Of a DNA stretch of 40,502 bases, positions 2,193 to 19,556 are shown in pieces; within the stretch, counting starts at the first letter, position 1, and every line of letters starts with the position of its first letter. The notes under the pieces were generated by a model. That model was not told the origin of the DNA and searched no databases. It saw only the letters and a program-made list of their open reading frames with translations. The DNA is taken from NCBI GenBank assembly GCA_031265015.1, contig JAISDG010000140.1:1-40502 (forward strand), given 5' to 3'. The translations under genes and the position numbers were made by a program. The stretch comes from Spirochaetaceae bacterium. Lineage in GTDB: Bacteria > Spirochaetota > Spirochaetia > Treponematales > Breznakiellaceae.

Positions 2193-2203
2193 AACGGTCC
2201 CGA

Positions 2204-2217: not shown

Positions 2218-2241
2218 TTGTACAGCTAAAAGTTCCGTTCA

Positions 2242-2682: not shown

Positions 2683-2702
2683 AGTGTCCTCCTGGTTGTG
2701 TT

Positions 2703-2731
2703 ATAATCTACCTGAACCGGGGATTTGTCAA
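2703..2731 (-). promoter_or_regulatory. Candidate sigma70-type promoter for fucU-lacI-fucI
   Basis: The minus strand reads TTGACA (2731-2726), a 17-nt spacer, then GATTAT (2708-2703). This sits just upstream of the fucU SD and ATG. Confidence 0.3.
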
Positions 2732-2739
2732 GAAAAAAA

Positions 2740-2753
2740 TGTAAACGATTACG
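2740..2753. promoter_or_regulatory. Second candidate LacI-family operator, TGTAAACGATTACG
   Basis: 9 of 10 specified positions match TGNAANCGNTTNCA (the last base is G, not A). It lies immediately upstream of the candidate -35 of the fucU promoter. Confidence 0.4.
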
Positions 2754-2799
2754 TTTTTTTTCAAAAAACGCCTTAAAAGCCGCCTTTTTAAAAAGCTTT

Positions 2800-2822
2800 C
2801 CCGGGAACGCGCCGGTTCCGGG
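2800..2822 (-). terminator. Possible intrinsic terminator downstream of the Prs-like gene
   Basis: A GC-rich hairpin CCCGG(G)AAC / GTTCCGGG with one bulge is followed on the minus strand by AAAGCTTTTT. Confidence 0.3.
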
Positions 2823-2871
2823 CGCAGACAAGCCCCCTTAAGAAGGGCCTTGGGACAGGGAACCTATTGGT

Positions 2872-3963: not shown

Positions 3964-4104
3964 GATTACACTATACCATGCCCTTTTGTCTTAAACAAGC
4001 TCGCTTCCTATTCACTTTTTTGAGAAATCATGGTATTTTTCAACAGTTGGACAAGCAAAAATACCGTTTGTTGCCATATATACACAGGTATGGGGAGGGA
4101 AAGG

Positions 4105-5578: not shown

Positions 5579-6157
5579 TTGTCCGTGGAAATTGTTGTCC
5601 TGGGGCTGGGATCCAACCGGCCTTTTAACGGCCTTTCCCCGGCGGAGCTGCTTAATTCCGCTTTCGCGGAATTAAGCAGCCTGTTGGAGGACTGCCGCCT
5701 GTCCCCGGTGTATACGACGGCGCCGGTGGGAGTGACGGATCAGGCCGACTTTTGTAACGCCGCCGTGGCGGGCCGGTACGGGGGCAGTCCCCGGGAGCTG
5801 CTGGCCGCGGTTCAGGCCGTGGAAGCCGCCCGCGGCCGGGACCGCCAGCGGGAACGCCGCTGGGGGGAACGGTCCCTGGACATCGACATACTTCTTTTCG
5901 GGGACCGGCTTATCCGGGAAAAGGACCTTTCCGTTCCCCATCCCCGGCTCCGGGAACGGGCCTTTGCCCTCCGGCCCCTGCTGGATCTTATCCCCGCCGC
6001 CCGGGAACCGGGGACGGGAATAAGCTACCGGCGGATTCTTGAAGCCCTGCCGGATCAGGGGATTAAAGCGTACCGCCCCGAAACCGAACCTAAGCGCGGC
6101 GTCCAAATTCCGCAAGCCGGTGATATACGCCGGTCATTGAATCATAGGCCTGATTGA
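5579..6157 (+). CDS. folK: 2-amino-4-hydroxy-6-hydroxymethyldihydropteridine pyrophosphokinase (HPPK)
   Basis: HPPK hallmarks are present: GLGSN..P...L, SPVYTTAPVG..Q.DF.NA, RWGERSLDIDILLFG, L.VPHPRL.ERAF.L.PL. The start is uncertain (TTG 5579 or GTG 5585). Confidence 0.85.
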   Translation: MSVEIVVLGLGSNRPFNGLSPAELLNSAFAELSSLLEDCRLSPVYTTAPVGVTDQADFCNAAVAGRYGGSPRELLAAVQAVEAARGRDRQRERRWGERSLDIDILLFGDRLIREKDLSVPHPRLRERAFALRPLLDLIPAAREPGTGISYRRILEALPDQGIKAYRPETEPKRGVQIPQAGDIRRSLNHRPD

Positions 6158-7628
6158 AAATTCCGAAAAGTTCTTCGTATACCGGCGCCAGTTCGCCGCG
6201 GGGTGAAATTGTTTTAACCGGTCCGTTAAACTGACGTATCACCGAAAAATCCCTAAAGGCGCCGATGCCGACGCCGCCGCAAACCGCCGCGCCAAGGCTT
6301 GTCGCTTCTTCGGTATAGGCAGGGACCACGAGGGGTTTTTGCCATATATCGGCGAGAATTTGCAGCCATACCGTACCCTTGGCCCCGCCGCCAATCATAA
6401 TGATCCCGCCTGTACCGTTCCCGCGATCTTCAAGAATTTCCAGGATGATTCTCAGATTAAAACCGACTCCCTCAAGCACCGCCCGTGAAATATCACTCTT
6501 GCCGGTGGTGATCGAGAGCCCGACAAAGGCGCCCCTGGCCTCATGGTTCCAGCGGGGGGAACGTTCCCCCAAAAGATAGGGAAGGTAGAGCAGCCCTCCG
6601 GCGCCGGGCGGCGACTTTAACGCCCCTTCGTCAATAATGCGGTAGGGATCTTCACCGTCCCTGGCGGCTTCCGCGATTTCATCGCCGCAGAGGGTGTTTT
6701 TGTACCAATTATAGGAATACCCCGCAGCCTGCATAGTCCCGCAGGGCGTATACAGCGCGGGATCGAGGTGGACCCAGGTAAAGGTCCGCATCCGCGGATC
6801 ATATAAGGGGGCCGTACTTGCCAGCGAAATCCAGGAAGAAGAACCAAGTACATTGTAGGCGGCGCCTTCCGCCACCACCCCGGCGCCCACACAGGCGCAG
6901 CTTCCATCGCCGCCGCCGATAATAACGGGAGTTCCCTGAAGGAGCCCGATTTCCCCCGCCGCTTCCAGGGTAATGCCTCCGGCGTTATACGTCGAAGGAT
7001 ACGGATCGGGAAGCAGGTCCGGCGGAATACTCAGGGCATCCAGACTGTTTTTATCCCAGGTTTTTTTCACCAGATCAAACAGATTCGTCCCCGATGCGTC
7101 ACTGTAATCGGTAACAAATTTTCCTGTGAGCTTGAAAATGATATAATCCTTGGCGTGAAGCATCTTATAGGCCCGTTTGTATATTTCGCCCTCATTATCC
7201 CGGACCCATAAAAGTTTTGCCGCGGAATAGGAAGCGCTGATCCGGTGTCCCGTGGTCCGGTATATATAATCCATCCCCAGCTTTTCTTTCATTTCCGCTT
7301 CCTGCGCGCCCGCGCGGGTATCCGCCCAAATGATCATCGGACGTAGCGGCCTGCCTTCGCCGTCAACCAGCAGGCAGCCCATCATCTGGCCGCTGAAACA
7401 AACCGCGGCAATATCGCCGGGAGATACAGACGCCTTTTCAAGAAGCTGACGGGTAGAAAGGCATACCGCCTTCCAGAAATCATTGGGATCCTGTTCTACC
7501 CATCCTGGTTTTGGGTAATACGCCGGATATTCATATAAAACACCGGCGCCCAATTTCCCTTCCAGAGAGAAAAGAGCCGCCTTGTTGCCGCTGGTGCCAA
7601 GATCATGAGCTAATATATATTTCGCCAT
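6090..7628 (-). CDS. FGGY-family carbohydrate kinase (xylulokinase-like)
   Basis: 512 aa. N-terminal LAHDLGTSGNKA, an FGGY C-terminal domain (GGGAKG..W.QI.ADI), and SD AGGAGG before the ATG. GC content is intermediate between the island and the flanks. Confidence 0.9.
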   Translation of the reverse strand: MAKYILAHDLGTSGNKAALFSLEGKLGAGVLYEYPAYYPKPGWVEQDPNDFWKAVCLSTRQLLEKASVSPGDIAAVCFSGQMMGCLLVDGEGRPLRPMIIWADTRAGAQEAEMKEKLGMDYIYRTTGHRISASYSAAKLLWVRDNEGEIYKRAYKMLHAKDYIIFKLTGKFVTDYSDASGTNLFDLVKKTWDKNSLDALSIPPDLLPDPYPSTYNAGGITLEAAGEIGLLQGTPVIIGGGDGSCACVGAGVVAEGAAYNVLGSSSWISLASTAPLYDPRMRTFTWVHLDPALYTPCGTMQAAGYSYNWYKNTLCGDEIAEAARDGEDPYRIIDEGALKSPPGAGGLLYLPYLLGERSPRWNHEARGAFVGLSITTGKSDISRAVLEGVGFNLRIILEILEDRGNGTGGIIMIGGGAKGTVWLQILADIWQKPLVVPAYTEEATSLGAAVCGGVGIGAFRDFSVIRQFNGPVKTISPRGELAPVYEELFGIFNQAYDSMTGVYHRLAEFGRRA

Positions 7629-7670
7629 AAATTGCCTCCTGCCCCGATTACCACAAATCGGTACTTCCGT

Positions 7671-8567
7671 TTAAATCACATTTTTTACATTGTTTTGCGT
7701 TAAAATACTTTTAAAATAAGATATATATTCGGCGGATGGAACCGGAAAAATATTTTTGTCAGGATTTTGGTATAACGCTGTATATTTACTGATTCCAAAA
7801 TCATGGTACGGCATAATCTCTACCCTAACCGGCTCATATTTGCTTAAGAACAGGGCTATCTTTTTAAATTCGTCTTCCGTGTCGTTATAGTCTGGTATTA
7901 ACGGTATTCTAACCCATATTTTACCGGGAATGTTTTCTAACAGGCCGCATATATTTTGTAAAATTATCTTATTATCCATACCGGTGCCTTTTATATGCAA
8001 TTCAGCGCTCATGGCTTTCAAATCGCAAATCCAAACATCAACGCTGCCTATCAGCTCTTCAATATCATTCCATGCCGCCATCATTGATGTTTCCAGTGCA
8101 ACATTTATATTTTCCAATTTACATTGTTTTACTATTTCCCGCAGTTCGGATATTTGTACAAAAGGTTCTCCTCCCGTAAAGGTAACTCCACCTCCGGTTT
8201 CTTCATAAAATATTCTATCTCTTATTATTCTTCGTATTAATTCTTCGGGATCGATATCATACCCTGCTAATTCAAATGCCTTTTGCGCACAGACTTTGAC
8301 GCAAAGACCGCATAGGGTACAATTGCCCCTGTCAAATATATGCATCTCTTCTTTCATAGTATTCGCGTCTGCGTTACAAACAGTTGCGCATCTTCCGCAT
8401 CCGCAGCATTTTTCGCTGTAATAAAAAAGTTGTACATCTTTTACGGATGATTCTGGATTATGGCACCACAAACAGCGCAGGGGGCATCCTTTTAAAAAGA
8501 TACTTGTTCTTATGCCGGGTCCGTCATGGATACTAAATCTTTGTATGTCAAAAAGGCGAATCCTCAA
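7671..8567 (-). CDS. Glycyl-radical enzyme activating enzyme (radical SAM)
   Basis: 298 aa. N-terminus FSIHDGPGIRT, radical-SAM cluster CPLRCLWCHN, and two ferredoxin-type motifs (CCGCGRCATVC and CTLCGLCVKVC). The TTG start overlaps the GRE stop codon (TTGA). Confidence 0.9.
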   Translation of the reverse strand: MRIRLFDIQRFSIHDGPGIRTSIFLKGCPLRCLWCHNPESSVKDVQLFYYSEKCCGCGRCATVCNADANTMKEEMHIFDRGNCTLCGLCVKVCAQKAFELAGYDIDPEELIRRIIRDRIFYEETGGGVTFTGGEPFVQISELREIVKQCKLENINVALETSMMAAWNDIEELIGSVDVWICDLKAMSAELHIKGTGMDNKIILQNICGLLENIPGKIWVRIPLIPDYNDTEDEFKKIALFLSKYEPVRVEIMPYHDFGISKYTALYQNPDKNIFPVPSAEYISYFKSILTQNNVKNVI

Positions 8568-10852
8568 TGGGCGATTTCCTTTTCAAACCTGTCTATCATG
8601 TCTCTTTGAACTTCTTTTAGCATATCGGTAAAATAAATGCTGAAACCTCCTTTTCGTACAATAACATTGGGGTGTTCCTCCGGATGCTCATAAGCCTGCC
8701 GTAATAATTCAACATTAACACTATTTACCTGAACCTGCATACCTCCCAGCTTAAAATATGATTTCAATAAACCCCTGAATTTTGCTTTATCCTCCCCGTT
8801 TTTCAATATGGCTTTTGAGACATAGATATCAATGGGAACGCCGCCGCTGAATCTAAACTGCGGAAGCTTCGATGCCGCCAGGATAAGATCTGTCGGGGAG
8901 GTTTTTATAACCTGAATTACCGCTCCGGCATTTTTCCCGAAGGGTTCGCCGTCTCTCCTTGAATCCAGCGAGGCATACACGCAATTTCCAAACTGTACAT
9001 TTGCATCGATAGTATGACAAGTAGGAAGAAAGCGAATATTTCCCCTATAGCACAATTCGGAAGCATCGGCAAGGGTATTTAAAACAAACGCGGCGTTTTC
9101 GTCCGCGGCATCGCTTCCGTCCGCATATTTAGGGCATTTTTGCAGTTCCGTATAAATTTCTACGGCTTTACCGGTTTTGCAGTAATTTCCCGCCGCCGCC
9201 GTCTTGATTTCCTCAAGGGTATATTTTCTTTTTTTAAACACCAATTCATCAATTGCGCTTATGGAATCCGCGGCATTCGCGAACCCCATGGATAAAACAG
9301 TTACATTGTGGTATTTTGCGCCGCGTCCCATCCTTATCATCTCAAAATCATACATCTTGTCGGGATTTAAATCCTCCGCGCTTTTCCCCAGCATATGTAC
9401 GGCCGAATAAGCCCTATCCCGCCCAAATTCAATACACCCGTCAAGAAAAATCGATAAAAAAGGATTAGGCCTGTTTAAAGCAACCCATGATGCCTTTAGC
9501 AGATTTTGATGGGCTACATATTCTGTTATTCCTTTAATATACTCCGCATACAAATCTTTGATTACCTTTATAGAATCGGGCTCTTTTGGTTTAACATGCG
9601 CTATAAATTTTCTGCATGACTCCGGCAATTCACCCCTTAAAGGAAACCCTTCATTCACCGCAAGCTCGAGGGGCAGGCTCATATTTACGCAGCATCCCCA
9701 CATATCCGCCAATTCTTTCCCAACAATAATATTTCCCATGCAGCTGTTTACCGAATAGTCATCGTTTTCGGACATTCCGCGATATGCCATCGCATGAAGG
9801 CACGCCTCCTCATTGTAGAACGTTGGCTGTCCAATTTCAAATAGATCTTGTCCGATAAAAGTATCGTATACGCTGTCTGCGGCGGTTTTCTTCATCCTTG
9901 CCGCTATGATGGGAGAACGCAGCTTGATTTGCTTCTCAACCCTTATCAGTAATTCAGAGAATTGATTCCACTCAGGACCAATATTCATTGCACAAGAACC
10001 ATCCCCGTATGAGTCCAGCATTTTAAAAAATGCTTTCAAAAGTTCAACCGCTTCTGCTTCTGTATTACCATCGTTAAGCCATCGCTCAAAATACGGATAA
10101 AGGTATTTGTCTATTCTTCCAAGCGAAACAGATGCCCAGGAACGCTCAGAAGCCGGTGTTATGGTGTGAATGATCCACATTGACTGCAGGGCTTCAAAAA
10201 AAGTATCGGCTGGTTTATATGGTACTTTTTCCAAAGCGCCGATTATACGAGTAAGTTCTTTTCTGCGTTTATCAGAATCACAGTTTTTTAATTTCTCTTC
10301 CGCCAATTGCACATATCTACGGGTAAAGATGCCGGCCGTATTAATACTTTCCAGCATCGCGTGCGCATATTTTCTGCCGTAATCATCAATATCCTTTTCC
10401 AGTCTTTTTTTTATCTTACCCGCATAATATTCCAGTCCTCTGGTCAGAATTGTTTCATAATCAACACAGGTATGTGACGGGGTGTAAATACCGAAAAGCA
10501 TATACGTCCCGCTGATTATTCGTTCTTCTTCATTCCAAACTTTATATTCCCCGCTTTCGCTATATTCATCGGAATCCGCTTGCCGTATTTGTTCCAGCAA
10601 ATCATTCTCCGCAAATTGAACTCCATAATTTCCAGCCAGGAGATCGCCGTCATTTAATCCTATCGGCAGTATTTCAAGAGCTCTTCTTAAAATTAGCATT
10701 TCCCGCTCAGAACTTACAAGCGTATCCTTTGATCCCGAATTCTTTATTTGTTTTCGGGCCAGGTTTGTAGTCATCCCTTTGGGGGGATAGGTTATGGACT
10801 TCATAAACGCTTCTAAATCGAAAGTTTTCAAATTCCAATCTGCATTTTTCAT
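8564..10852 (-). CDS. Glycyl-radical enzyme (PFL-like fold), divergent or orphan subclass
   Basis: 762 aa. GRE landmarks include EALQSMWIIH and GQPTFYNEE. The Cys loop is DDYSVNSCMGNIIVGKE. The C-terminal Gly-radical segment is HPNVIVRKGGFSIYFTDML. A perfect SD (GGAGGTGAATA) precedes the ATG. Confidence 0.9.
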   Translation of the reverse strand: MKNADWNLKTFDLEAFMKSITYPPKGMTTNLARKQIKNSGSKDTLVSSEREMLILRRALEILPIGLNDGDLLAGNYGVQFAENDLLEQIRQADSDEYSESGEYKVWNEEERIISGTYMLFGIYTPSHTCVDYETILTRGLEYYAGKIKKRLEKDIDDYGRKYAHAMLESINTAGIFTRRYVQLAEEKLKNCDSDKRRKELTRIIGALEKVPYKPADTFFEALQSMWIIHTITPASERSWASVSLGRIDKYLYPYFERWLNDGNTEAEAVELLKAFFKMLDSYGDGSCAMNIGPEWNQFSELLIRVEKQIKLRSPIIAARMKKTAADSVYDTFIGQDLFEIGQPTFYNEEACLHAMAYRGMSENDDYSVNSCMGNIIVGKELADMWGCCVNMSLPLELAVNEGFPLRGELPESCRKFIAHVKPKEPDSIKVIKDLYAEYIKGITEYVAHQNLLKASWVALNRPNPFLSIFLDGCIEFGRDRAYSAVHMLGKSAEDLNPDKMYDFEMIRMGRGAKYHNVTVLSMGFANAADSISAIDELVFKKRKYTLEEIKTAAAGNYCKTGKAVEIYTELQKCPKYADGSDAADENAAFVLNTLADASELCYRGNIRFLPTCHTIDANVQFGNCVYASLDSRRDGEPFGKNAGAVIQVIKTSPTDLILAASKLPQFRFSGGVPIDIYVSKAILKNGEDKAKFRGLLKSYFKLGGMQVQVNSVNVELLRQAYEHPEEHPNVIVRKGGFSIYFTDMLKEVQRDMIDRFEKEIAH

Positions 10853-10875
10853 TATTCACCTCCGGAATAAAAGAT

Positions 10876-10907
10876 ATAACCAGCCCATAAGGTTATGAGC
10901 TGGTTAT
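10876..10907 (-). terminator. 32-bp near-perfect palindrome between the binding-protein gene and the GRE gene (attenuator or mRNA-stabilising hairpin)
   Basis: ATAACCAGCCCATAA-GG-TTATGAGCTGGTTAT has 15-nt arms with one mismatch. On the minus strand it is followed by ATCTTTTATT and then the GRE SD. Confidence 0.45.
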
Positions 10908-10923
10908 AGTACAACCGCTTATT

Positions 10924-11931
10924 TTACAAACCGTATTCCGATTTTACTTTTTCAATTGTCTCCCGCTGGAGTTTCTGTTGTTGCTCAAGATACTCTTCAA
11001 CATTCTCTGTGGAAACAATGCTCATTGCCAGTTCAATATCTTCGGCAGGAGGATTTTGGCCTCTGGCAATCATTACCGCTACCGCAATAGCCCTGACCCC
11101 TATCTCATAGGGTATTTGATTTGCGGTAAAATGCATTTCCCCTTTGCTTATCGCTTCAACAGCGTCAGGGGATGCGTCAAATCCGCCTACGATGACAGTA
11201 CCGACCTTGCCGGCGGAACGCAGGGCCTCAATTGCGCCCAGTGCCATCTCATCGTTTGCGGCCCAAACCGCGTCAATATCAGGGTTAGCCTGCAATATGG
11301 TTTCCATAACCGAAACAGCCTGAGCTCTTTCAAGATTTGCCACTTGTTCCGAGACGATTTCGATATCGGAATAAACGCTAATTGCGCTTCGAAAACCATT
11401 CTCCCTGTTCTGGATAACATCCCTGCCGGGCGTTCCAAGAATCATGGCTACTTTCCCTTTTCCATTCAGCCGTTTTCCCAAATAGTCACCGCAAAGATTT
11501 CCGCCTTGAACGTTATCTGCCGTTATGGACACGTTTACTTTGGTTGAAACCCTTGTTCCCGACATCACAACCGGAATACCTTTAGACATAGCTTCGTCAA
11601 TTGCCGTATTAATCCCGTCGGTACTGGTCGGATCTATCGAAATGACGTCAGGATTTGTAGCAATCAGGTTTTCAATTCTTCCAATTTGAGTCCCCGGATC
11701 CCAAGCGTTTGATTCGGGATTCGTTACCTGGTTAATTTCAGCATCAAGTTCCTTGGCCATATCTTTAGAACCGTTGGCAAAAAGAACATACCAGGGATTA
11801 TTGAGCGTGGGCATACTTTGGGCAATGGTTAAAACAGCATTGCCTTCATCCCCGGCGCCTCTTGAACAGCCTGCTACCGCCAGTGAACAAATCAGCGCGT
11901 ACAAAAATAAAATTCCGAATAGCCTTTTCAC
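10924..11931 (-). CDS. Sugar ABC transporter substrate-binding lipoprotein (RbsB-like, type I PBP)
   Basis: It has an RbsB-like periplasmic binding fold. The signal peptide carries a lipobox: LICSLAVAGC. I prefer GTG 11931 (VKRLFGILF..), which has GGAGG 6 nt upstream, over the track start at 11985. Confidence 0.85.
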   Translation of the reverse strand: MKRLFGILFLYALICSLAVAGCSRGAGDEGNAVLTIAQSMPTLNNPWYVLFANGSKDMAKELDAEINQVTNPESNAWDPGTQIGRIENLIATNPDVISIDPTSTDGINTAIDEAMSKGIPVVMSGTRVSTKVNVSITADNVQGGNLCGDYLGKRLNGKGKVAMILGTPGRDVIQNRENGFRSAISVYSDIEIVSEQVANLERAQAVSVMETILQANPDIDAVWAANDEMALGAIEALRSAGKVGTVIVGGFDASPDAVEAISKGEMHFTANQIPYEIGVRAIAVAVMIARGQNPPAEDIELAMSIVSTENVEEYLEQQQKLQRETIEKVKSEYGL

Positions 11932-12017
11932 AATTTTCCTCCTTGGAAAAAAATACAGAAATTCGTCTTTAAAAACAGGAATCATTCATTGTTTCCGGTG
12001 ATCACCTCCTTATCTTA

Positions 12018-12968
12018 TTATTTATTCTTTTTGCGCTTATCAAGAAAAACAGCAATTAAAATTACACATCCAACGATTAATCCCTGAAGATAAGGATTGA
12101 CATTCAATAATACAAGGCCGTTATTTAAAACGGTGATAACCAAAGCCCCCATCAACGTTCCGAATATCCCTCCTTCACCGCCGGTCAGGCTTGTCCCGCC
12201 AATAACAACTGCCGCTATGATGTCAAGTTCTATTCCGCTTGCCGCGCCCGGCTGTCCGGAATTCATTCTTGCGGTAAGTACTATGCCCGCAACCGCGGTC
12301 AAAATCCCATGTACCACATATGTTATTATTTTCCACATGTTTACATTGATACCCGAAAGTACAGCGGCGTTTTCATTTCCGCCTATCGCGTATATATATC
12401 TTCCAAAAATGGATTTCTTTAAAACAAATAGGCCAAACAGCACAACCAATACGGCAATGAGTACCGGCACGGGAACAGGTCCTACCGAACCTGTTCCAAT
12501 AAATGAATAAATTTTGGGTATTCCCGTAATAGGATAACCGCCGCTGTACATCAGGGCGAGACTTCTCGAAATGGTGAGCATGGCCATAGTCGCTATAAAT
12601 GCGGGTATTTTCCCGTAGGTTACTAAAAGCCCGGACACTAAGCCTGTTAAAGTACCGATCAAAAGACCTATACTTACCGCTATACCTACCGTCATGCCTT
12701 CTCTCATAAATCCCGCGATAAGGGTTCCCACCAAAGCCATGACTCCGCCGACTGAAAGATCGATGCCTCCGGTTAAAACTATGAAAGTCATGCCCGTTGC
12801 TAATATCAGATTAATGGAACATTGCCTTGCAATATTTATAAGATTATAAACACTCATAAAATGTTCGGTCAGGATGGTGAAAATGACGCATAAAATAACT
12901 AATCCTCCCAATGCGCCGTTTATACTTACTTGCTTCTTAAGATGCCGCAAAGGCTTATTCACAATCAC
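12018..12968 (-). CDS. Sugar ABC transporter permease (RbsC/XylH-like)
   Basis: 316 aa, polytopic and hydrophobic, with the typical CUT2 permease pattern (GGIDLSVG, GG.S..GG.G). Confidence 0.9.
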   Translation of the reverse strand: MIVNKPLRHLKKQVSINGALGGLVILCVIFTILTEHFMSVYNLINIARQCSINLILATGMTFIVLTGGIDLSVGGVMALVGTLIAGFMREGMTVGIAVSIGLLIGTLTGLVSGLLVTYGKIPAFIATMAMLTISRSLALMYSGGYPITGIPKIYSFIGTGSVGPVPVPVLIAVLVVLFGLFVLKKSIFGRYIYAIGGNENAAVLSGINVNMWKIITYVVHGILTAVAGIVLTARMNSGQPGAASGIELDIIAAVVIGGTSLTGGEGGIFGTLMGALVITVLNNGLVLLNVNPYLQGLIVGCVILIAVFLDKRKKNK

Positions 12969-12977
12969 CCTCCGTAT

Positions 12978-14471
12978 TCAAAATGCCAGCTTCATAATTG
13001 CGTGTTCTTCCAGTTCGTGTCTTTGGAGTTCACCGGCCAGTTCCCCCCTGCGCATTACGATAACCCTGTCGCTCATGCCGATAATTTCAGGTAAATCCGA
13101 GGAAATCATAATTATCGCAGCTCCGGATTTTGCCAACTCGGAGATGATTTTGTATATTTCCGCTTTAGCCCCGACATCTACGCCCCGGGTAGGTTCATCA
13201 AATATAAGCACCTGGTGATTTTTATATATCCATTTGCCGATAACTACCTTTTGCTGATTTCCACCGCTCAGATTTCTGGTCTTAACGTTTAGCCGGTCCG
13301 GTTTTATAGCAAGTTTATGTATTATTTCGTTACCGTTGCCGGCAGTCTTCCTGTTAGAAACAAGCAAAAAATAGCTCATCATATCCAGATAGGGCAGGGA
13401 AATATTATTTTCAATATCCAGGGAAAGGATCAATCCCTCCGATTTACGTTCTTCAGGGATCATGACTATTCCCAGTTTTTTTGCTTTTATGGGAGAATCA
13501 ATTATCACGTGTTTATTGTTTAGGTAAATTTTCCCGGCGCTAATTCTGTTTATTCCTATAATAGCCCTTGCCAATTCCGTTCTCCCGGATCCTACCAGCC
13601 CGCTTATTCCCAGTATTTCACCTTTTTTTACTTCAAAGCTGATATTCCTGATTATCTTATCACAGGAAAGTGAATCCACGCGCAGTATTGTCTCATTTAT
13701 GGTTTTCGCAACGGATGGAAATTGTTCAACAAGATCGCGGCCTATCATCATTCTTGTTATTGCATCTTTGGCAAATTCCTTGGTTTTTAGTTCCCCAACC
13801 ATCTTTCCATCGCGCAATATGCTTACCCGATCGGCAATATGAGGCAGTTCTTCCAATCTGTGGGAAATATAAATTATAGCTAATCCTTCCTTTTTTAGAC
13901 CCATAATTACTTCAAAGAATTTGTTAATTTCCTTAGCGGATAAGACCGCCGTAGGCTCGTCCATTACTACAATTCTGGAATTAACCGATAGTGCCTTGCA
14001 GATTTCAACCAGTTGTTTTTCGGCCACCCCTAAATTTTTTACCCGTTCTTTTACATCAAAATTTGAATCAACCCGCTGTAAAAGCCCGCGCGTTTGTTCA
14101 TATATATTTTTATTGCGGATCAAGCCCGCGGTTATTTTTTCCCGTCCCAAAAAAACATTCGCCGCAACATCCAGGTTATCAACTAAATTAAATTCCTGGT
14201 GGATCGTGCTTATGCCCGCAAAAATAGCATCTTTTGGACTCTTGAATTTGACCGCTTTGCCTTCAAAGGTTATTTGTCCGGCGTCCGCTTGGTATATCCC
14301 CGCCAGAATTTTGATTAATGTTGATTTACCCGCCCCATTTTCTCCGACCAGAGCGTGAAGTTCACCGCGGTTCAAATTAAAATCAACATCAAACAACACT
14401 TGGGTGCCTGAAAATTGCTTGCGGATTCCTTTCATTTCCAATAAATCAGTCATACGCCACCAAATTGTCAC
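12978..14471 (-). CDS. Sugar ABC transporter ATP-binding protein (duplicated ATPase, RbsA/MglA-like)
   Basis: 497 aa with two ABC cassettes: Walker A GENGAGKST, signature LSGGNQQKV, Walker B LIFDEPT. The start is either GTG 14471 or ATG 14453. Confidence 0.9.
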   Translation of the reverse strand: MTIWWRMTDLLEMKGIRKQFSGTQVLFDVDFNLNRGELHALVGENGAGKSTLIKILAGIYQADAGQITFEGKAVKFKSPKDAIFAGISTIHQEFNLVDNLDVAANVFLGREKITAGLIRNKNIYEQTRGLLQRVDSNFDVKERVKNLGVAEKQLVEICKALSVNSRIVVMDEPTAVLSAKEINKFFEVIMGLKKEGLAIIYISHRLEELPHIADRVSILRDGKMVGELKTKEFAKDAITRMMIGRDLVEQFPSVAKTINETILRVDSLSCDKIIRNISFEVKKGEILGISGLVGSGRTELARAIIGINRISAGKIYLNNKHVIIDSPIKAKKLGIVMIPEERKSEGLILSLDIENNISLPYLDMMSYFLLVSNRKTAGNGNEIIHKLAIKPDRLNVKTRNLSGGNQQKVVIGKWIYKNHQVLIFDEPTRGVDVGAKAEIYKIISELAKSGAAIIMISSDLPEIIGMSDRVIVMRRGELAGELQRHELEEHAIMKLAF

Positions 14472-14499
14472 TCGCTAATCAATATGTAAAGATGTAAGT

Positions 14500-14528
14500 A
14501 CAATATGTCATATAAGATTATTTGTCAA
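14500..14528 (-). promoter_or_regulatory. Candidate sigma70-type promoter of the ABC-GRE operon
   Basis: The minus strand reads TTGACA (14528-14523), a 17-nt spacer, then TATTGT (14505-14500). An 11-bp palindrome ATATGNCATAT (14503-14513) overlaps the spacer and the -10. Confidence 0.35.
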
Positions 14529-14545
14529 GTATTTTTTTTATTTTT

Positions 14546-15517
14546 TTAGCTTTTAATCCTGGTGTTATGGGCGGCGAATGCCCCGGCGGGATTTTTCACA
14601 AAAAAATCTTCTATCCGCTTCGGATCAATTCCCCGATCCCGCATGAGGGGGATGAATTTTTCGATAATGTAGGCCAGTCCGGGAACACCGCCGTAGCTTC
14701 CCAGCCTGGCCCGGGTAGTATCCAGGGACATGAGCAACCGATCCCCGTAACCCGCTTCCAGAAGCCCCATAACAAGGGAAAGTTCCTTTTCGTCGTCGTG
14801 GTATCCGGGCCGGCCGATAGTATCATATTCCAGCCAGCTCCCCCGGCGGCAGAGTTCCCGGTGGACCGCGGGATCGGGGACCGCCCGGTCCGGGTGGCAA
14901 TAGATGACCCGGTTTGCGGGGACTCCGGTTTTTTCAAGAAAATCCGCCGGTTCCAGCGGGTTGGAACCTTTTTCGACGTGAACCATCAGGGGCCGGCCGG
15001 TTTTCAAGGCGGCTCTGGCCGCGGCGCCAAAGAGGGTACGGTACCGGGGGATCAGCCCCTCCGTATCCAGGGCTGTCTTGATCTGGCCCGCCCTGGCGGA
15101 ACCCTGTTTTTTGGGAAAAGCCCCGCCGCCGTCCAGGTACATTCCCCGTGTCAGTTCTTCGATAAAAAGCTCCGCCAGGACGTCTTCGCCGGCGGAATGG
15201 ATCCAGTGATCGGCGGGGTAATACGAAAGCTTGTGAAAACCGGTAGAGGCGATGATGTGAAGGGAACTTTGTTCAGCCAGGCTTATCAGGACCGCGGCGC
15301 TTCTGCCGCAGCCAAGGGGCTGGGCGTCTACCAGCGCCCGGCCCCCCACGCGGCGGTACACCAACAGTTCCGCAAGGCTTTTGCCGGGATCGTCGATGAG
15401 CTGCTCCGCCGGAACGGAATGGGCAAAGCTGATGTAGAGGTGCTCATGGCTCTGGCAGAACCCCAGGGAATCGGGGGAAATATCTCCCAAAACCGTGGTA
15501 ATAAGCCCCTTTTTCAT
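14546..15517 (-). CDS. Phosphotriesterase-related protein (PTE/Php family amidohydrolase, possible lactonase)
   Basis: 323 aa. N-terminal G.C.SHEHL metal-binding HxH motif and a PTE-family TIM-barrel pattern. GC-rich, unlike the adjacent cassette. Confidence 0.85.
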   Translation of the reverse strand: MKKGLITTVLGDISPDSLGFCQSHEHLYISFAHSVPAEQLIDDPGKSLAELLVYRRVGGRALVDAQPLGCGRSAAVLISLAEQSSLHIIASTGFHKLSYYPADHWIHSAGEDVLAELFIEELTRGMYLDGGGAFPKKQGSARAGQIKTALDTEGLIPRYRTLFGAAARAALKTGRPLMVHVEKGSNPLEPADFLEKTGVPANRVIYCHPDRAVPDPAVHRELCRRGSWLEYDTIGRPGYHDDEKELSLVMGLLEAGYGDRLLMSLDTTRARLGSYGGVPGLAYIIEKFIPLMRDRGIDPKRIEDFFVKNPAGAFAAHNTRIKS

Positions 15518-15521
15518 GGGG

Positions 15522-16472
15522 TTAACATACCAGGCAGGGGCATTTTTTGCCCGAGAGCACGCCTGCGAGGTTCCGTACCGACATAAGGGCCATGGCGGCG
15601 GTGGCTTCGGCGGTATGGGACGCCGTATGGGGGGTCAATACCACATTGTCCAGGGCAAAGAGGGGGGACGCCCGGGGCGGCTCCGCCTCGAATACGTCCA
15701 GCCCCAATCCTCCCAGATAGCCGGATTGGAGCAGTTCACAGGCGGCGTCTTCGTCTATCAATCCGCCCCTGGCGGTGTTGACGATAACGGCTCCCCTTTT
15801 CATGGACCTCATCACCTCCGCGGAAATGATATGCCTGGTTTCACCGGTCAAGGGAAGGTGGAGGCAAAGAAAATCCGCTTCTTGTATGACGGTGTCAAAA
15901 GCGGCGGGGATGATCCCATTGGCTTGGGCGTAGTCTTCGTCCAGACAGGGATCGTAAGCCATGATCCGCATGGAAAAACCCGATCCCCTTTTGGCCACCG
16001 CCCGGCCCACGGCCCCAAGCCCCAGAATGCCGAGGGTTTTGCCGTAGAGTTCCACCCCGGTTGAGCGGGGCCACCGGCCGTTCCGGGTATCCCGGTCCAG
16101 CCGGGGAATCCGCCGGGCGGCGCAGAGGAGGAGGGCCACGGTCAGATCCGCCACCGCCTGGGCGTTGGCCCCGGGGGTATTGCAGACCCGGATACCCCGT
16201 TTTTTTGCCGCTTCCAGATCAATCCGGTCGAAACCGGCGCCGTACCGGGAAATTACCTTTAAATCCGGGGCGTTTTCCAGTACCCTGGCGGTAAAATGAT
16301 CCAGCCCCGCGATACAGCCTTCACAGCCCGGGAGAAGGGAAATAAGCTCATCCTCCGTCAGGGGCCTGTCCCGGGGGTTGAAAACCAGCGTGTCCGCGAA
16401 GGAACGAAGCTCCTCCATGGCGGGACCCCCGGTATCACCCTTAAACGACGTGGCGGTCACCAGAATTTTCAT
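15522..16472 (-). CDS. D-isomer-specific 2-hydroxyacid dehydrogenase (PGDH/GyaR-like)
   Basis: NAD-binding site GILGLGAVGRAVA and catalytic-region motifs (..R..VNTARG.., TPHTASHT). I prefer ATG 16472 (MKILVTA), which is preceded by AGGGGG. The stop lies 4 nt before the PTE start. Confidence 0.85.
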   Translation of the reverse strand: MKILVTATSFKGDTGGPAMEELRSFADTLVFNPRDRPLTEDELISLLPGCEGCIAGLDHFTARVLENAPDLKVISRYGAGFDRIDLEAAKKRGIRVCNTPGANAQAVADLTVALLLCAARRIPRLDRDTRNGRWPRSTGVELYGKTLGILGLGAVGRAVAKRGSGFSMRIMAYDPCLDEDYAQANGIIPAAFDTVIQEADFLCLHLPLTGETRHIISAEVMRSMKRGAVIVNTARGGLIDEDAACELLQSGYLGGLGLDVFEAEPPRASPLFALDNVVLTPHTASHTAEATAAMALMSVRNLAGVLSGKKCPCLVC

Positions 16473-16503
16473 AAAACCCCCTAAAATCATTATATGTCAT
16501 TAC

Positions 16504-16532
16504 ATACTAACAATAGTACTTTTTTTCGTCAA
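16504..16532 (-). promoter_or_regulatory. Candidate sigma70-type promoter of the dehydrogenase-PTE operon
   Basis: The minus strand reads TTGACG (16532-16527), a 17-nt spacer, then TAGTAT (16509-16504). The palindromic TATGT-catt-ACATA element (16493-16506) overlaps the -10 and continues just downstream. Confidence 0.35.
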
Positions 16533-16620
16533 GGGCTTTACATTTTCCCCGGTATGATTTATTGTTAATCCGGGTTTGTCAGTTTGTCATGACTTTAAAC
16601 GGGAGAACCTAAGGGTATTT

Positions 16621-17550
16621 ATGGTGAATCTTGAGGCAGCTAAGGAGCCGGCTTTTTATTTTATCGGGGTAACGACCGGCCAGTCTTCCATAATGAAGGT
16701 ATTTCCCAGGTGGGCGGACGCCCTGGGGCTGGGGGCGGTTATAAAGGGAATCGATCTTCCCCCCCACGCTCCGGCGGAAGATTACCGGAGGGTGATTGGG
16801 TTCCTTAAGAACGATCCCCTGTCGCTGGGGGCGCTGGTAACGACCCACAAGCTGGACCTCTATTCCTCCTGCAGGGATATGTTTGACTACGTGGATCCTT
16901 ACGCCCAAAAGCTTTCGGAAGTGTCGTCCCTGTCCAAAAAGGACGGAGCCTTCCGCGCCCACGCCAAAGATCCCATCTCCAGCGGCCTTGCCCTGGAATC
17001 CTTTGTGGCCCCCCGGTTTTGGGAGGACCACGGCGGCGAGGTCCTCCTGCTGGGGGCCGGCGGAAGTTCCCTGGCCATGTCCCTGTATTTTTCCCGGAAG
17101 GAAGCGGCGGGGAACAAGCCCCGGCGCATTACCATCGCCAACCGGAGCGAACCCCGGCTTGCCTCCGCAAAAGCCGCCCTGGCGGACTGCTGTGGAGAGA
17201 TCGAATTCCGGTTTTTACATTGCCCCACCCCCGCCGGTAACGACGCCCTGGTGGCGGCGCTGCCCCCCTGGTCCCTGGTGGTCAACGCCACCGGCCTGGG
17301 GAAAGACGCCCCCGGTTCTCCCACCACCGGCGCCGTTTCGTATCCCCCCAATTCCCTGGTCTGGGAGATCAATTACCGGGGGGACCTGATCTTTATGCAG
17401 CAGGCCCAGGCCCAGGCCGGGGAAAAAAAACTCCTGGTTGAAGACGGCTGGAATTACTTTATCTTCGGCTGGACCCAGGTTATTGCCGAGGTGTTTCATA
17501 TCGACATAAGCCCCCGGCAGCTTGCGGAACTAAGCAGGATCGCCCGGTAG
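16621..17550 (+). CDS. Shikimate/quinate dehydrogenase-like protein (AroE superfamily, atypical)
   Basis: The N-terminal substrate domain has GVTTGQSSIMKVFP where AroE has G.IG.PI.HS.SP. The Rossmann motif is LLLGAGGSSLAM, and NATGLG follows later. The ATG 16621 start is preferred. Confidence 0.7.
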   Translation: MVNLEAAKEPAFYFIGVTTGQSSIMKVFPRWADALGLGAVIKGIDLPPHAPAEDYRRVIGFLKNDPLSLGALVTTHKLDLYSSCRDMFDYVDPYAQKLSEVSSLSKKDGAFRAHAKDPISSGLALESFVAPRFWEDHGGEVLLLGAGGSSLAMSLYFSRKEAAGNKPRRITIANRSEPRLASAKAALADCCGEIEFRFLHCPTPAGNDALVAALPPWSLVVNATGLGKDAPGSPTTGAVSYPPNSLVWEINYRGDLIFMQQAQAQAGEKKLLVEDGWNYFIFGWTQVIAEVFHIDISPRQLAELSRIAR

Positions 17551-17572: not shown

Positions 17573-18160
17573 GTGGCTGATTTTAACTGGCAGAAGGGAT
17601 TTATCGTTGACTTTGCGCTGACGGGGGGGCTGTCCTCCGCCGTTGTTTCCACCAAACGGAAACTGTCCCAAATGCGGGGCATTTTCTCCGACCCGGACGC
17701 CTTTGAAAAGGCCGCTGCCGCGGGGGACCCGGTGGTATATGAATTTTACGAACTGGGGGCTCCGGAAAACGCCGGGGATGTGGCCTTCGGTACTTCCGTT
17801 ACCTATCCGGGAAAGGTAGGGGCTGAATACTTTATGACCAAAGGGCACTTCCATCTGGTTCTGGAAACCGCGGAAGTGTACTATACCCTTTCGGGCGAGG
17901 GGGGGATGCTGGTGGAAAACCCGGAGGGAGAAACGGATTTTTTCCCCATGACCCCCGGAAACGCGGTCTATGTACCAAAACGGTTTGCCCACCGGAGCGT
18001 CAATACCGGTACAGTTCCGCTGGTTTCCTTTTTTGCCTTCCGGGGAGACGCGGGACACAATTACGCTGAAATTGAAACCAGGGGGTACCGTAAGCTGGTG
18101 GTAGAAGGGATGGACGGCAGACCCGGAATTATAGATAATCCCAGGTGGGGGACAGAATGA
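17573..18160 (+). CDS. Cupin-type glucose-6-phosphate isomerase homolog (cPGI family)
   Basis: The motif PGKVGAEYFMTKGHFHLVLETAEVYY fits P-x3-G-x-E-x3-T-x-G-H-x-H-x6-E-x-Y. VPKRFAHRSVN fits P(P)x3Hx3N. GTG start with AGGAGG 5 nt upstream. Confidence 0.75.
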   Translation: MADFNWQKGFIVDFALTGGLSSAVVSTKRKLSQMRGIFSDPDAFEKAAAAGDPVVYEFYELGAPENAGDVAFGTSVTYPGKVGAEYFMTKGHFHLVLETAEVYYTLSGEGGMLVENPEGETDFFPMTPGNAVYVPKRFAHRSVNTGTVPLVSFFAFRGDAGHNYAEIETRGYRKLVVEGMDGRPGIIDNPRWGTE

Positions 18161-18795
18161 CGGTTAAGGAACGGCTGGGTTCGACCCGGCTTATACCGGT
18201 GGTTGTCATGGACGACGCGGAGCGGGCGGTCGATACCGCCGGGGCATTGCTGTCAGGCGGTATCGATGTAATGGAAATAACCCTGCGTACCGAAGCGGGG
18301 CCGGCGTCAATCGAAAAGGCAATTAAAGCCTATCCCAACATTCTGGCGGGCGCGGGTACCGTGTTTTCCCTGGAAAAATGCAGGGAAGCGGTTTCCCGGG
18401 GGGCGGCCTTTATCGTATCCCCCGGTTATGATCCCGAAATTGTGGAATTTTGCCTTAAAAACAAAGTAGCGGTATTCCCCGGCTGCGTTACTCCCACGGA
18501 AATTACCGGGGCCCTCAAGGCGGGGCTCGATATCCTTAAATTTTTCCCCGCCGATGTGTACGGCGGCGTCAAGGCCATTAAGGCCCTTTCAGGACCCTTC
18601 CCCATGATCAAATTTATTCCCACCGGCGGGGTGAATCTGTCCAACCTGGCGGATTTTCTGGTTCCCCAGGTCTTTGCCGTGGGGGGCGGCTGGCTCTGTG
18701 ACCGCAGGGCGGTTAACGCGGGAAACTACGGCGAAATTACCAGGATCTGCGCGCAATCGGTAGAGCTTGTTAAAAAAGCCCAAACGCCGGCATAA
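18157..18795 (+). CDS. eda: KDPG/KHG-type aldolase (Eda family)
   Basis: Shows the Eda pattern: LIPVVV.D, GI.VMEITLRT, GAGTV, FIVSPG, PG..TPTE, KFFPA. ATG 18157 overlaps the stop of the upstream gene (ATGA). Confidence 0.85.
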   Translation: MTVKERLGSTRLIPVVVMDDAERAVDTAGALLSGGIDVMEITLRTEAGPASIEKAIKAYPNILAGAGTVFSLEKCREAVSRGAAFIVSPGYDPEIVEFCLKNKVAVFPGCVTPTEITGALKAGLDILKFFPADVYGGVKAIKALSGPFPMIKFIPTGGVNLSNLADFLVPQVFAVGGGWLCDRRAVNAGNYGEITRICAQSVELVKKAQTPA

Positions 18796-18803
18796 GGGCA
18801 GCA

Positions 18804-19556
18804 ATGTCACAGCGGGTTCTGGATACCATCAAACTTGATAAAAATATTCCGATCCCCCTGTATTACCAGCTGAAAAAACAGCTTCTCTCGCTGATCCAGG
18901 ATGCCAGCATAGGGGAGGGTGAGCTGCTCCCCCCGGAGTTTGAACTCTGCGAGCGGCTCAATGTTTCCCGCCCGACTATACGGCAGGCGTTCAGCGAACT
19001 GGTCAACGAAGGGTACCTGACCCGCCACAAGGGAAAGGGTACCTTTGTTTCCAAACCCAAGGTGATGGACCAGTTTTTTAGCAAACTGGAAACCTTCCAC
19101 GACGAAATGGCGGGAAAGGGTTTTAATCCCGCCACCGTGGTCCTGAAGCTGGAGAAGATCCGGGGGCCCCGTGAGGCGAACGAAAAGCTGTCTATCCCCC
19201 TGGACGCTCCGCTCATCTATTTAAGCAGGGTCCGGTCGGTTAATTCGGTACCCCTGGTCTATCTGGAAACCTTTCTGCCCTATGAAACCTGCGGTAAACT
19301 GATGCTGGTGGATTTTAAGGTCAATTCCCTCTACGATTCCCTGGAAAAGATCCACGGCCTGCGGATAAACAGGGTCCGGCGCGAATTTATGGCGGTAAAC
19401 GCCCGTCAAAAAGAGGCGGAACTGCTGCAAATCGCCAGGAATAAGGCGATAAGCCTGGTTAAGACCGTCGCCTATTCGGCGGATACCCCGGTGGAATTTT
19501 CCATTGCCCGCTACCGGGGAGACATAAACCAGTTCAGCGTGGAACTGGCCAGGTAG
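18804..19556 (+). CDS. GntR-family transcriptional regulator (HutC-like, UTRA effector domain)
   Basis: 250 aa. N-terminal winged HTH (PLYYQLKKQL..LPPEFELCERLNVSRPTIRQAFSELVNEGYL.R.KGKGTFV) with a UTRA-like C-terminal half. It lies 8 nt after eda. Confidence 0.9.
   Translation: MSQRVLDTIKLDKNIPIPLYYQLKKQLLSLIQDASIGEGELLPPEFELCERLNVSRPTIRQAFSELVNEGYLTRHKGKGTFVSKPKVMDQFFSKLETFHDEMAGKGFNPATVVLKLEKIRGPREANEKLSIPLDAPLIYLSRVRSVNSVPLVYLETFLPYETCGKLMLVDFKVNSLYDSLEKIHGLRINRVRREFMAVNARQKEAELLQIARNKAISLVKTVAYSADTPVEFSIARYRGDINQFSVELAR

Follow-up and report, generated by a model that had tools for sequence, protein, structure and literature searches.

The contig JAISDG010000140.1 of a Spirochaetaceae bacterium (40,502 nucleotides, hereafter the window) carries on its minus strand five AT-rich genes (7671-14471) encoding a CUT2-type ATP-binding cassette (ABC) importer, a glycyl radical enzyme (GRE) and a GRE-activating enzyme (AE), which were very probably acquired horizontally by a Treponema from a low-GC, Clostridia-like donor. 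As judged from sequence and predicted fold, the GRE founds a small superclade (~45 of ~1,500 GRE clusters) lying outside every characterised clade, and the five genes would rather probably act as a foreign import and radical-conversion core within a native sugar-catabolic operon. The GRE-activase pair itself is of a known kind, and its coupling to an ABC sugar importer and an Entner-Doudoroff-like enzyme set is a motif-defined variant. The gene content, order and strand of the block, as assessed from the open reading frames (ORFs), Pfam domains and curated models, are those described in an earlier note on this DNA. The features of the block are listed below, in the direction of transcription.

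14472..14545, minus strand: AT-rich intergenic leader with a promoter-like site, included in the alignment to a second contig (L038) and assigned to the transferred block
14528-14500, minus strand: promoter-like TTGACA-17-TATTGT, a motif match in the leader
12978..14471, minus strand: CUT2 importer ATPase with two fused ABC domains (Pfam ABC_tran, twice)
12018..12968, minus strand: CUT2 permease, a single BPD_transp_2 gene (Pfam PF02653)
10924..11985, minus strand: RbsB-like substrate-binding lipoprotein (SBP; Peripla_BP_4 at 211 bits)
10908-10875, minus strand: 15-bp stem-loop with a trailing T-tract in the SBP-GRE intergenic gap
8564..10852, minus strand: GRE of 762 aa with PFL-like and Gly_radical domains
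7671..8567, minus strand: GRE-activating radical S-adenosylmethionine (SAM) enzyme (AE) of 298 aa (TIGR02494)

Composition and origin of the AT-rich block

The GC content in 1-kb windows is 0.39-0.46 across about 7.5-14.5 kb, as compared with 0.51-0.68 in the rest of the window. The GC content at third codon positions (GC3) of the five genes is 0.344-0.427, whereas the 29 other genes of the window have a mean GC3 of 0.649 (standard deviation 0.045, minimum 0.551), which places the five genes at z = -4.9 to -6.7. These values confirm the switch of third codon positions to A/T at about 7.65-14.5 kb that had been estimated by hand in the earlier note, and the GC3 profile across the boundaries is not flat. 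The GC/GC3 values of the individual genes are 0.377/0.344 (AE), 0.423/0.413 (GRE), 0.457/0.427 (SBP), 0.428/0.416 (permease) and 0.415/0.420 (ATPase), and those of the neighbours are 0.548/0.585 (FGGY kinase), 0.591/0.679 (phosphotriesterase-family protein, PTE) and 0.606/0.703 (D-2-hydroxyacid dehydrogenase, 2-HADH). The figure of 68-70% GC given earlier for the right flank is correct only as a GC3 value, the total GC being 59-61%. The GC contents at first and second codon positions (GC1 and GC2) of the five genes are also below those of the other genes, and the encoded proteins thus appear to have evolved in an AT-rich background. The change in composition is complete within ~200 nt at either end, where the switch points coincide with the 42-nt gap between the AE and FGGY kinase genes and the 74-nt gap between the PTE and ATPase genes, both of which are intergenic. 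An independent Logan assembly (L002) shares 99.96% identity with window positions 7233-15533 and spans both junctions, so the block is not an assembly chimera. The second contig (L038) contains an equally AT-rich variant, 89% identical, the alignment running through the leader to window position 14547.

The candidate promoter, the palindrome between the SBP and GRE genes, the tight or overlapping gaps and the 42-nt gap before the FGGY kinase gene were all found as previously noted. The GRE and AE genes overlap by 4 nt, the start of the AE gene lying over the GRE stop codon, and the 42-nt gap contains an AGGAGG ribosome-binding site. The genes of the block are presumably co-transcribed, and the stem-loop at 10908-10875 probably serves to attenuate transcription within the operon or to stabilise the mRNA. 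An Rfam search of the locus gave no riboswitch or leader RNA.

The MreB and Prs proteins of the window belong to Treponema/Spirochaetaceae clusters, whereas the named relatives of the GRE are all from Clostridia (Blautia, Oscillospiraceae, Clostridiales) and none is from a spirochaete. A Treponema locus (L040) encodes orthologs of the flanking kinase (82%), 2-HADH (66%) and PTE (51%) without GRE or AE, and its importer is a different, paralogous CUT2 system (36-45% identity). Horizontal acquisition, as proposed in the earlier note, is thus supported by the sharply bounded composition, by the contrast between the Treponema host and the Clostridia relatives of the GRE, and by the GRE-less locus L040. 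The block shares with genomic islands an atypical composition with sharp boundaries and a phyletic pattern discordant with the host (no formal tree), and differs from them in having no integrase or transposase, tRNA target or direct repeats in the window, as already stated in that note, and in lying inside an operon of functionally related genes. In the simplest history, a widespread native pathway would have been present in Treponema when the low-GC ABC-GRE-AE core arrived with its promoter-bearing leader, to lie now between the PTE and kinase genes. The source would have been a Clostridial-type locus in which homologs of these accessory enzymes were partners of the core beforehand.

The module is compositionally atypical elsewhere as well (L012:1507-10869; L007:3574-18215; L044:5342-14698), with a GC3 of 0.27-0.35 in the L012 module vs 0.5-0.69 in the downstream genes. 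This suggests repeated transfer and frequent movement.

Several observations weigh against a simple acquisition. The best non-Treponema GRE is only 69% identical, no close donor having been sampled, and the transfer was either not very recent or repeated, since the 89%-identical variant in L038 is equally AT-rich. No mobility gene (integrase or transposase) is present among the Pfam-annotated ORFs of the window, a tRNA scan of the window found none, and there are no meaningful direct repeats at the block ends that could mark an insertion. These absences would also agree with a native block that owes its AT-richness to chimeric assembly or to local compositional heterogeneity. Such an origin is very improbable, as L002 crosses both junctions, GC1 and GC2 are shifted besides GC3, no named Treponema relative of the GRE was found as compared with dozens for the flanking genes, and L040 is a GRE-less counterpart.

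The glycyl radical enzyme and its activase

The GRE matches PF02901 (235.2 bits) and PF01228 (55.2 bits), both above cutoff, and contains the glycyl site R733-K-G-G736-F-S738, which is invariant in 27 close members and reads RIGGYS in the sister clade. Its Cys loop (N369-S-C371-M-G373) is non-canonical. The invariant Cys371 aligns with Cys433 of glycerol dehydratase (GD), and hidden Markov model (HMM) alignments place it at the catalytic cysteine of the GCVE loop in GD, propanediol dehydratase (PD) and CutC, where the catalytic glutamate position of these enzymes is occupied by Gly373, a residue 100% conserved in the family. As compared with 45 generic GREs, 38 family sequences retain the GRE core (His127, equivalent to GD His164, Cys371, Arg733, Gly736 and Ser738) and share fourteen family-specific positions, namely Ser370 (Gly in 98% of generic GREs), Gly373 (Glu in 89%), Met372, Met384, Trp385, His613 (aligned with GD Tyr640), Lys640, Arg480, Asn290, Asp284, Gln342, Glu348, Asn369 and Gly643. 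The Cys loops of peripheral relatives are NNCMG, STCMQ, SSCMA and, in one case (P0275), SGCME, which suggests descent from ancestors of the CXE type (X represents any amino acid).

All curated GRE models score far below their cutoffs (TIGR01774, 260 vs 678 bits; HypD, 193 vs 1100; CutC, 171 vs 1050), and the best PDB sequence match reaches only 4.7e-51. The homologs comprise ~44 clusters of ~760 aa (49-91% identity) and a sister group of ~700 aa (33-41%), followed by an abrupt fall to generic GREs at ~26%. A profile search of 1.84 billion representatives returned 1,498 GRE-like clusters at E<=1e-30, of which the close clade makes up one representative and ~45 representatives lie above the generic plateau; the top representatives have the Cys loop [N/S/T]-S-C-M-G, and no lower-scoring match has this loop. 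Placement inside a functionally characterised clade, which the earlier note had named as a result that would tell against its reading, is thus contradicted by the curated models, PDB matches and HMM alignments alike. GRE peptides, searched against one genome per species, gave only one locus, which indicates that reference genomes rarely contain the family, and a search of the searchable (non-paywalled) literature found no mention of it.

An AlphaFold2 (AF2) model built from 27 family sequences (pLDDT 88.4, pTM 0.90) adopts the GRE barrel fold, matching ~50 GRE chains in Foldseek with probability 1.00 and template modelling (TM) scores of 0.74-0.82. The top neighbours (TM ~0.80-0.82, 17-22% identity) are GD, PD, CutC, YbiW/PflD and HplG, and the succinate synthases BSS and MASS are the most distant among the listed structural matches. 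The protein is assigned to the PFL-like division of the GRE superfamily by its domains, glycyl site, catalytic cysteine, fold and adjacent activase. It is not an aminoacyl radical enzyme (AARE), as Gly736 is present rather than Ala, Ser or Thr. A formate lyase of the PFL or TdcE kind was rejected, as the loop reads Ser370-Cys371 without a Cys-Cys pair and TIGR01255 scores 64.8 vs 994.2 bits, and an X-succinate synthase was likewise rejected, as the 71-nt and 42-nt gaps contain no small-subunit ORFs and BSS and MASS are structurally distant.

The AE scores 317.8 bits against TIGR02494 (cutoff 174.35) and contains the radical-SAM motif C28-X3-C32-X2-C35, an insert with two CX2CX2CX3C motifs for extra clusters (CCGCGRCATVC and CTLCGLCVKVC) and the SAM-binding sequence TGGEPF (GGEP), all expected of a GRE-activating enzyme. 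These features support an intact GRE and AE, which would form a competent radical pair.

GD and PD (1r8w and 5i2a), which are B12-independent C-O 1,2-eliminases, are among the closest structural neighbours (TM ~0.80). They share with the GRE the 10-stranded fold, the glycyl loop, the catalytic Cys position, the equivalents of His164 and Ser282 (His127 and Ser241) and a cognate activase with two auxiliary clusters. The identity is just 21-22%, however, Glu435 is replaced by Gly373, and the loop reads NSCMG instead of GCVE. The GRE gene lies beside a sugar ABC importer, whereas theirs lie in polyol or microcompartment loci, and the enzyme presumably acts on a whole monosaccharide or polyol.

The importer and the module in other genomes

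The importer has the tandem-domain ATPase, BPD_transp_2 permease and Peripla_BP_4 SBP of the CUT2 family, and is nearest to ribose, xylose, arabinose and allose systems, with all three proteins below every curated cutoff. The ATPase (likely true start 14453, giving 491 aa, as called in L002) scores 515-533 bits against the xylose, arabinose and ribose ATPase models, in each case under the cutoff. The components are not equivalogs of RbsABC (RbsA, 514.7 vs 745 bits; RbsB, 170.6 vs 337; RbsC, 285.9 vs 398), with which they share the three-component architecture, and the module is without ribokinase. The SBP (likely true start 11931, giving 335 aa; lipobox LAVAG|C) has its best PDB matches in the ribose-binding proteins of Thermoanaerobacter (2ioy, 5e-55) and E. 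coli (RbsB, 4e-43). Its alignment keeps Asn, Arg, Arg, Asn, Asp and Gln at positions which we take to be the ribose contacts of RbsB. It differs from RbsB in having SGTR in place of the 'LDR' segment, Leu for Phe164 and a family-specific insert. The pocket-forming segments are invariant across six module-linked orthologs, which argues for one ligand common to the module-linked SBPs.

The neighbourhoods of twelve distinct close-clade loci with usable flanks, the window included, were compared, most of them on metagenome contigs. An orthologous importer lies directly upstream of the GRE and AE genes, in the order ATPase-permease-SBP-GRE-AE, in eight of the twelve (the window, L005, L007, L011, L012, L042, L043 and L044), and likewise in the short fragment L038. 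Identities of the window proteins to those of the other module loci are 53-71% for the SBP, 60-74% for the permease and 57-68% for the ATPase, the latter being the values to the ATPases of L005, L007, L011, L012 and L042-44. A paralogous CUT2 importer adjoins the GRE gene in two more loci (L001, L003). The ABC-GRE-AE arrangement described in the earlier note therefore recurs in other genomes, whereas its extension by a kinase is found in only three of the twelve loci.

Two types of module locus can be distinguished by their additional genes. Type A (L042, L043) has the arrangement GntR / cPGI-ATPase-permease-SBP-GRE-AE / 2-HADH-KDPG-type aldolase-PTE-SDH-like, where cPGI is a cupin-type phosphoglucose isomerase homolog, KDPG is 2-keto-3-deoxy-6-phosphogluconate and SDH-like refers to the shikimate dehydrogenase fold. 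These two loci are uniformly low in GC, and their identities to the window are 63-64% for the GRE, 63-70% for the SBP and 50% for the AE, with which those of the accessory proteins (38-63%) are comparable. Type B (L005, L007, L012, L044) has in addition a DeoR regulator and a second tandem-domain ATPase (L005:3727-6015; L007:3574-5897; L012:1507-3816; L044:12402-14698), which is 28-31% identical to the importer ATPase and without its own permease. In L007, a XylB-type kinase directly follows the AE and is followed by a second GRE with its own activase (L007:14930-18215), which is glycerol/diol-dehydratase-like (5.5e-200 to 1r8w), and then by a GH13 alpha-amylase-family gene.

Many Clostridial loci are GRE islands, where two or three pairs of GRE and activase genes lie together, both in the close clade (L001:4347-21497; L003:9989-21619; L011:3929-9516; L013:4605-11019) and in the sister clade (L018:9722-14827; L023:7531-11652). 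The co-located partners of the NSCMG enzymes are CXE types, or have the loops GCND and LCQD. A recurrent GRE type of 666-705 aa, with the PFL-like Cys-Cys loop 'SACCT' and the glycyl loop 'RLYGFSEY', accompanies sister-clade enzymes (L018, L023/24) and the most divergent close-clade member (L013). An assignment of the second GREs as aminoacyl radical enzymes was rejected, as all retain the glycine. The neighbours in sister-clade loci include GH38, GH43 and GH123 genes, a sugar-isomerase-type TIM barrel, an SGL lactonase-like gene, AraC/LacI regulators and an aldo-keto reductase, which suggests that the whole superclade may be linked to carbohydrate genes.

Flanking genes and the proposed pathway

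The genes adjoining the block on both sides are as follows.

6090..7628, minus strand: XylB-type FGGY kinase (FGGY_N and FGGY_C), 42 nt downstream of the AE gene, of native composition
14546..15517, minus strand: PTE-family lactonase-like protein (PF02126), directly upstream of the block, of native composition
15522..16490, minus strand: 2-HADH, nearest to PGDH and to glyoxylate and 2-ketogluconate reductases, of native composition
16576..17550, plus strand: SDH-like NAD(P) oxidoreductase identified by fold search, divergently transcribed
17573..18160, plus strand: cPGI (PF06560; 1j3p, 6.5e-54)
18145..18795, plus strand: KDPG/KHG-type aldolase (PF01081, 197 bits)
18804..19556, plus strand: GntR/UTRA regulator, the candidate regulator of the locus

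The FGGY kinase scores 378.1 bits against the XylB model TIGR01312 (cutoff 380.25), and its nearest PDB matches are LsrK, gluconokinase and xylulokinase at similar E-values. It has 5,785 homologs at E<=1e-100, including dozens of Treponema orthologs at 70-92% and Firmicutes members at 62-66%, and is 62% identical to the kinase at the same position in L007/8 and 48% to FGGYa of L043. Inclusion of this kinase in the transferred module on the strength of its 62% identity to the L007 kinase was considered and dropped, as the gene is very common and has many closer orthologs in Treponema. The kinase gene adjoins the AE gene, as seen in the earlier note, and is probably co-transcribed with it, but it is a native gene outside the transferred DNA. 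In two other Treponema loci (L039:8915-12531; L041:8771-12523), an orthologous XylB-type kinase (83-84%) lies between an SGL lactonase-like gene and a GH88 gene, which encodes an unsaturated glucuronyl hydrolase. The native context of the kinase therefore varies, and its substrate may not be xylulose.

The best PDB match of the PTE is 3pnz (3e-35), presumably the Listeria lactonase Lmo2620, and the NCBI model for phospho-furanose lactonase gives 115 bits against a cutoff of 630. A literature search on Lmo2620-type lactonases found no pathway context. Homologs of the PTE adjoin the GRE module in L042 and L043 (48-49%) and the kinase locus of the GRE-less L040 (51%), and the 2-HADH is 59% identical to that of L042 (56-60% across L042 and L043) and 66% to that of L040. 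Sequence searches of Pfam and the PDB gave no match to the SDH-like protein, which is placed by fold search only (AF2 pLDDT 87.2; Foldseek TM 0.68-0.71 to AroE, YdiB and 5-ketofructose reductase). It is the best-conserved accessory gene product (63% to both L042 and L043), and has >7,900 homologs, with Treponema members at 75-96%; several homologs of the kinase and of the SDH-like protein are on contigs of equal length, which suggests, without proof, that the two lie together there. The cPGI is related over its full length to archaeal cupin phosphoglucose isomerases and is 56-58% identical to the protein encoded at the head of the L042 and L043 GRE operons, where the aldolase and GntR/UTRA regulator have counterparts beside the module at 38-40% and 39-41%, respectively. 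The 85-nt intergenic region at 16491-16575 separates the divergent 2-HADH and SDH-like/cPGI/aldolase/GntR operons and contains promoter-like sites on the minus strand (16532-16504, with a TG extension) and the plus strand (16537-16565); it is likely the control region of the native locus.

Further features of the window lie outside this locus. A group on the minus strand at 1203-3963 encodes a LacI regulator, an RbsD/FucU mutarotase and an atypical 363-aa ribose-phosphate diphosphokinase-like protein. It lies 2-5 kb from the kinase gene, with recA and folK between. The presence of a pyranase so close to a ribose-like importer may be of significance, but its conservation does not extend to the module loci. 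The convergent HPPK (plus) and FGGY kinase (minus) ORFs overlap by 68 nt (6090-6157). The RecA ORF (4030-5523, plus) has a Pro/Ala-rich low-complexity tail of ~130 aa after RecA_C, at a GC peak of 0.65-0.68, and its N-terminus is probably over-extended. A sigma-54 activator of only 323 aa (24169-25140, plus) contains AAA+ and HTH domains without a receiver or sensor domain. A bacterial class A RNase P RNA (216 bits) is found at 35732-36346 on the minus strand, where the match of 615 nt to a 367-nt model indicates large insertions and renders the ORFs at 35640-35960 (minus) and 35842-36321 (plus) spurious.

An interpretation of the PTE, 2-HADH and aldolase genes as unrelated native neighbours, suggested by eight Clostridial loci that do not have them, was overturned by L042 and L043. 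The claim that the GRE product would feed enzymes encoded on both sides is favoured by these two loci, where the module adjoins PTE, 2-HADH, aldolase, cPGI, SDH-like and GntR genes. The import of a carbohydrate-like molecule and its conversion by radical chemistry, also proposed earlier, are in turn favoured by the recurrent gene order, the RbsB-like SBP and the intact GRE and AE. The five-gene functional module of the earlier note holds as a block, the functional unit being larger than the AT-rich DNA.

In the proposed pathway, the lipoprotein SBP would capture a ribose- or allose-like monosaccharide or polyol, and the importer would take this ligand in. The activase, with SAM and [4Fe-4S] clusters, would install a radical on Gly736, which would be relayed to Cys371, and this residue would abstract hydrogen from the unphosphorylated sugar at a carbinol carbon. 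The beta C-O bond would then be cleaved, where His127 would serve as the leaving-group acid and a family-specific residue such as His613 possibly as the base, the usual glutamate being absent. The product would be a deoxy-keto sugar, which after phosphorylation would pass through an Entner-Doudoroff-like series of isomerase, dehydrogenase, lactonase, 2-HADH and aldolase to pyruvate and a small phosphorylated aldehyde. The GRE would accordingly act before the kinase, on a substrate of the ribose/allose-like sugar or polyol class. A pathway shedding a small diol would fit the diol-dehydratase-like GRE appended in L007. The activities appear analogous to those of the Entner-Doudoroff pathway (Pgi, Zwf, Pgl, Edd and Eda) and its 2-ketogluconate branch (KguK and KguD), from which the set differs in that only the aldolase is of the canonical family (PF01081) and the GRE is embedded in place of Edd.

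That the GRE supplies the dehydration otherwise lacking in the locus is a tentative proposal, which rests on the requirement of a KDPG-type aldolase for a 2-keto-3-deoxy acid, yet no classical sugar-acid dehydratase was seen in the annotated parts of the window, L042 and L043. It agrees with a fold closest to the C-O-cleaving eliminases and isomerases and with the invariant equivalent of GD His164. It is possible, though doubtful, that the NSCMG enzymes form a new functional GRE class acting on a free, unphosphorylated monosaccharide or polyol supplied by an ABC importer, which would replace an Entner-Doudoroff-type dehydratase, work without the Glu base through a family-specific set including His613, Trp385 and Lys640, yield a deoxy-keto product and be mobile between Clostridia and gut spirochaetes.

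According to a review of June 2026, GREs fall into seven classes with whole clades still unassigned, the CXE motif is reported for every eliminase and isomerase detailed, including YbiW and PflD, and these two are the only sugar-acting GREs described, with nothing resembling the NSCMG clade (PMC13450708). YbiW and PflD convert 1,5-anhydroglucitol-6-phosphate or 1,5-anhydromannitol-6-phosphate to 1-deoxyfructose-6-phosphate in 'anhydroglycolysis' (PMC13450708). The GRE resembles both in fold (TM 0.79-0.82) and in the proposed logic of a deoxy-keto sugar (phosphate) followed by an aldolase, but they combine CXE with 6-phosphates, whereas the GRE has CMG, only ~20% identity to them, an ABC uptake system that would deliver an unphosphorylated sugar, and different downstream enzymes (lactonase, 2-HADH and KDPG-type aldolase). 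The substrates of YbiW and PflD enter through the phosphotransferase system. These two sugar-linked enzymes are to be added to the GRE systems named in the earlier note, which knew of none coupled to a ribose-type ABC importer and an FGGY kinase; they are distant CXE enzymes of sugar phosphates.

Other findings count against the GRE as a dehydratase within an import-and-conversion pathway. The CXE motif of the 1,2-eliminases and isomerases (GD, PD, HypD, CutC, IslA, HpsG, HplG, YbiW and PflD), the Glu of which is considered essential to their chemistry, is replaced by C371-M-G373, which weakens a simple dehydratase analogy, and the missing Glu is the main difficulty, so that another base, most obviously His613, or a different chemistry may be involved. 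Two loci (L009/10 and L013) have no adjacent importer, and the accessory set accompanies the GRE in only three of the twelve loci, with DeoR and the second ATPase in four. Genes of the accessory set also occur very commonly where no GRE is encoded, and the aldolase and GntR homologs, at just 38-41%, are perhaps not strict orthologs.

A less likely course is late action of the GRE on a phosphorylated intermediate, as a counterpart of 6-phosphogluconate dehydratase or a sugar-phosphate isomerase similar to YbiW/PflD. The kinase, lactonase and 2-HADH could all precede the GRE, a direct step from phospho-aldonate to KDP-aldonate would equally explain the missing dehydratase, and the regulators in four loci are of the DeoR type, which commonly sense sugar phosphates. 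Sugar 6-phosphates are also the substrates of the only characterised sugar-acting GREs (PMC13450708). However, adjacency to the importer is far commoner than to the kinase, which in its three loci lies downstream of the GRE-AE pair; the CXE motif of YbiW/PflD is absent at ~20% identity to both; and a GRE that formed the 2-keto-3-deoxy acid directly would leave the 2-HADH without an evident function. Chemistry at a C-C bond (lyase or addition) or another non-eliminase reaction such as epimerisation is improbable. The formate lyases and X-succinate synthases are GRE classes without the Cys-loop Glu, and the replacement of the catalytic Glu by Gly in all members, together with the fourteen family-specific positions (Trp385, His613 and Lys640 among them), would suit such a rebuilt active site, but Ser at 370 leaves no PFL-type Cys-Cys pair, the PFL model gives 64.8 vs 994 bits, in structure the enzyme is closer to eliminases and isomerases than to the succinate synthases, small-subunit genes are absent, and the C-M-E of P0275 suggests an eliminase-type ancestry. 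Still less probable is a merely syntenic association of the importer with a GRE acting on a non-carbohydrate (diol, amine or sulfonate), for which the two loci without an adjacent importer and the many mixed GRE islands might speak. The adjacency is conserved in order across hosts with differing flanks, the importer and GRE proteins diverge in parallel, the sister-clade contexts are carbohydrate-related, and no microcompartment shell or aldehyde-processing genes, which accompany the diol and choline GREs, were noticed.

Import followed by early radical conversion is thus the preferred reading. GREs give anaerobes access to chemistry that is otherwise difficult, and several influence the metabolism of gut microbes and of their hosts. 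The cassette offers a compact testable system for one clade, comprising an SBP, enzyme, activase and downstream set in three genomes, and as the GRE breaks the CXE rule, its mechanism would be informative whatever the substrate. If the GRE is a dehydratase, the cassette would represent, besides anhydroglycolysis, a second route by which carbohydrates are broken down with radical chemistry, and an instance of pathways evolving by modules, with a foreign core for import and conversion added to a resident pathway. If the substrate proves ordinary, it would still be a clean case of gene flow from Clostridia to Treponema in a gut community.

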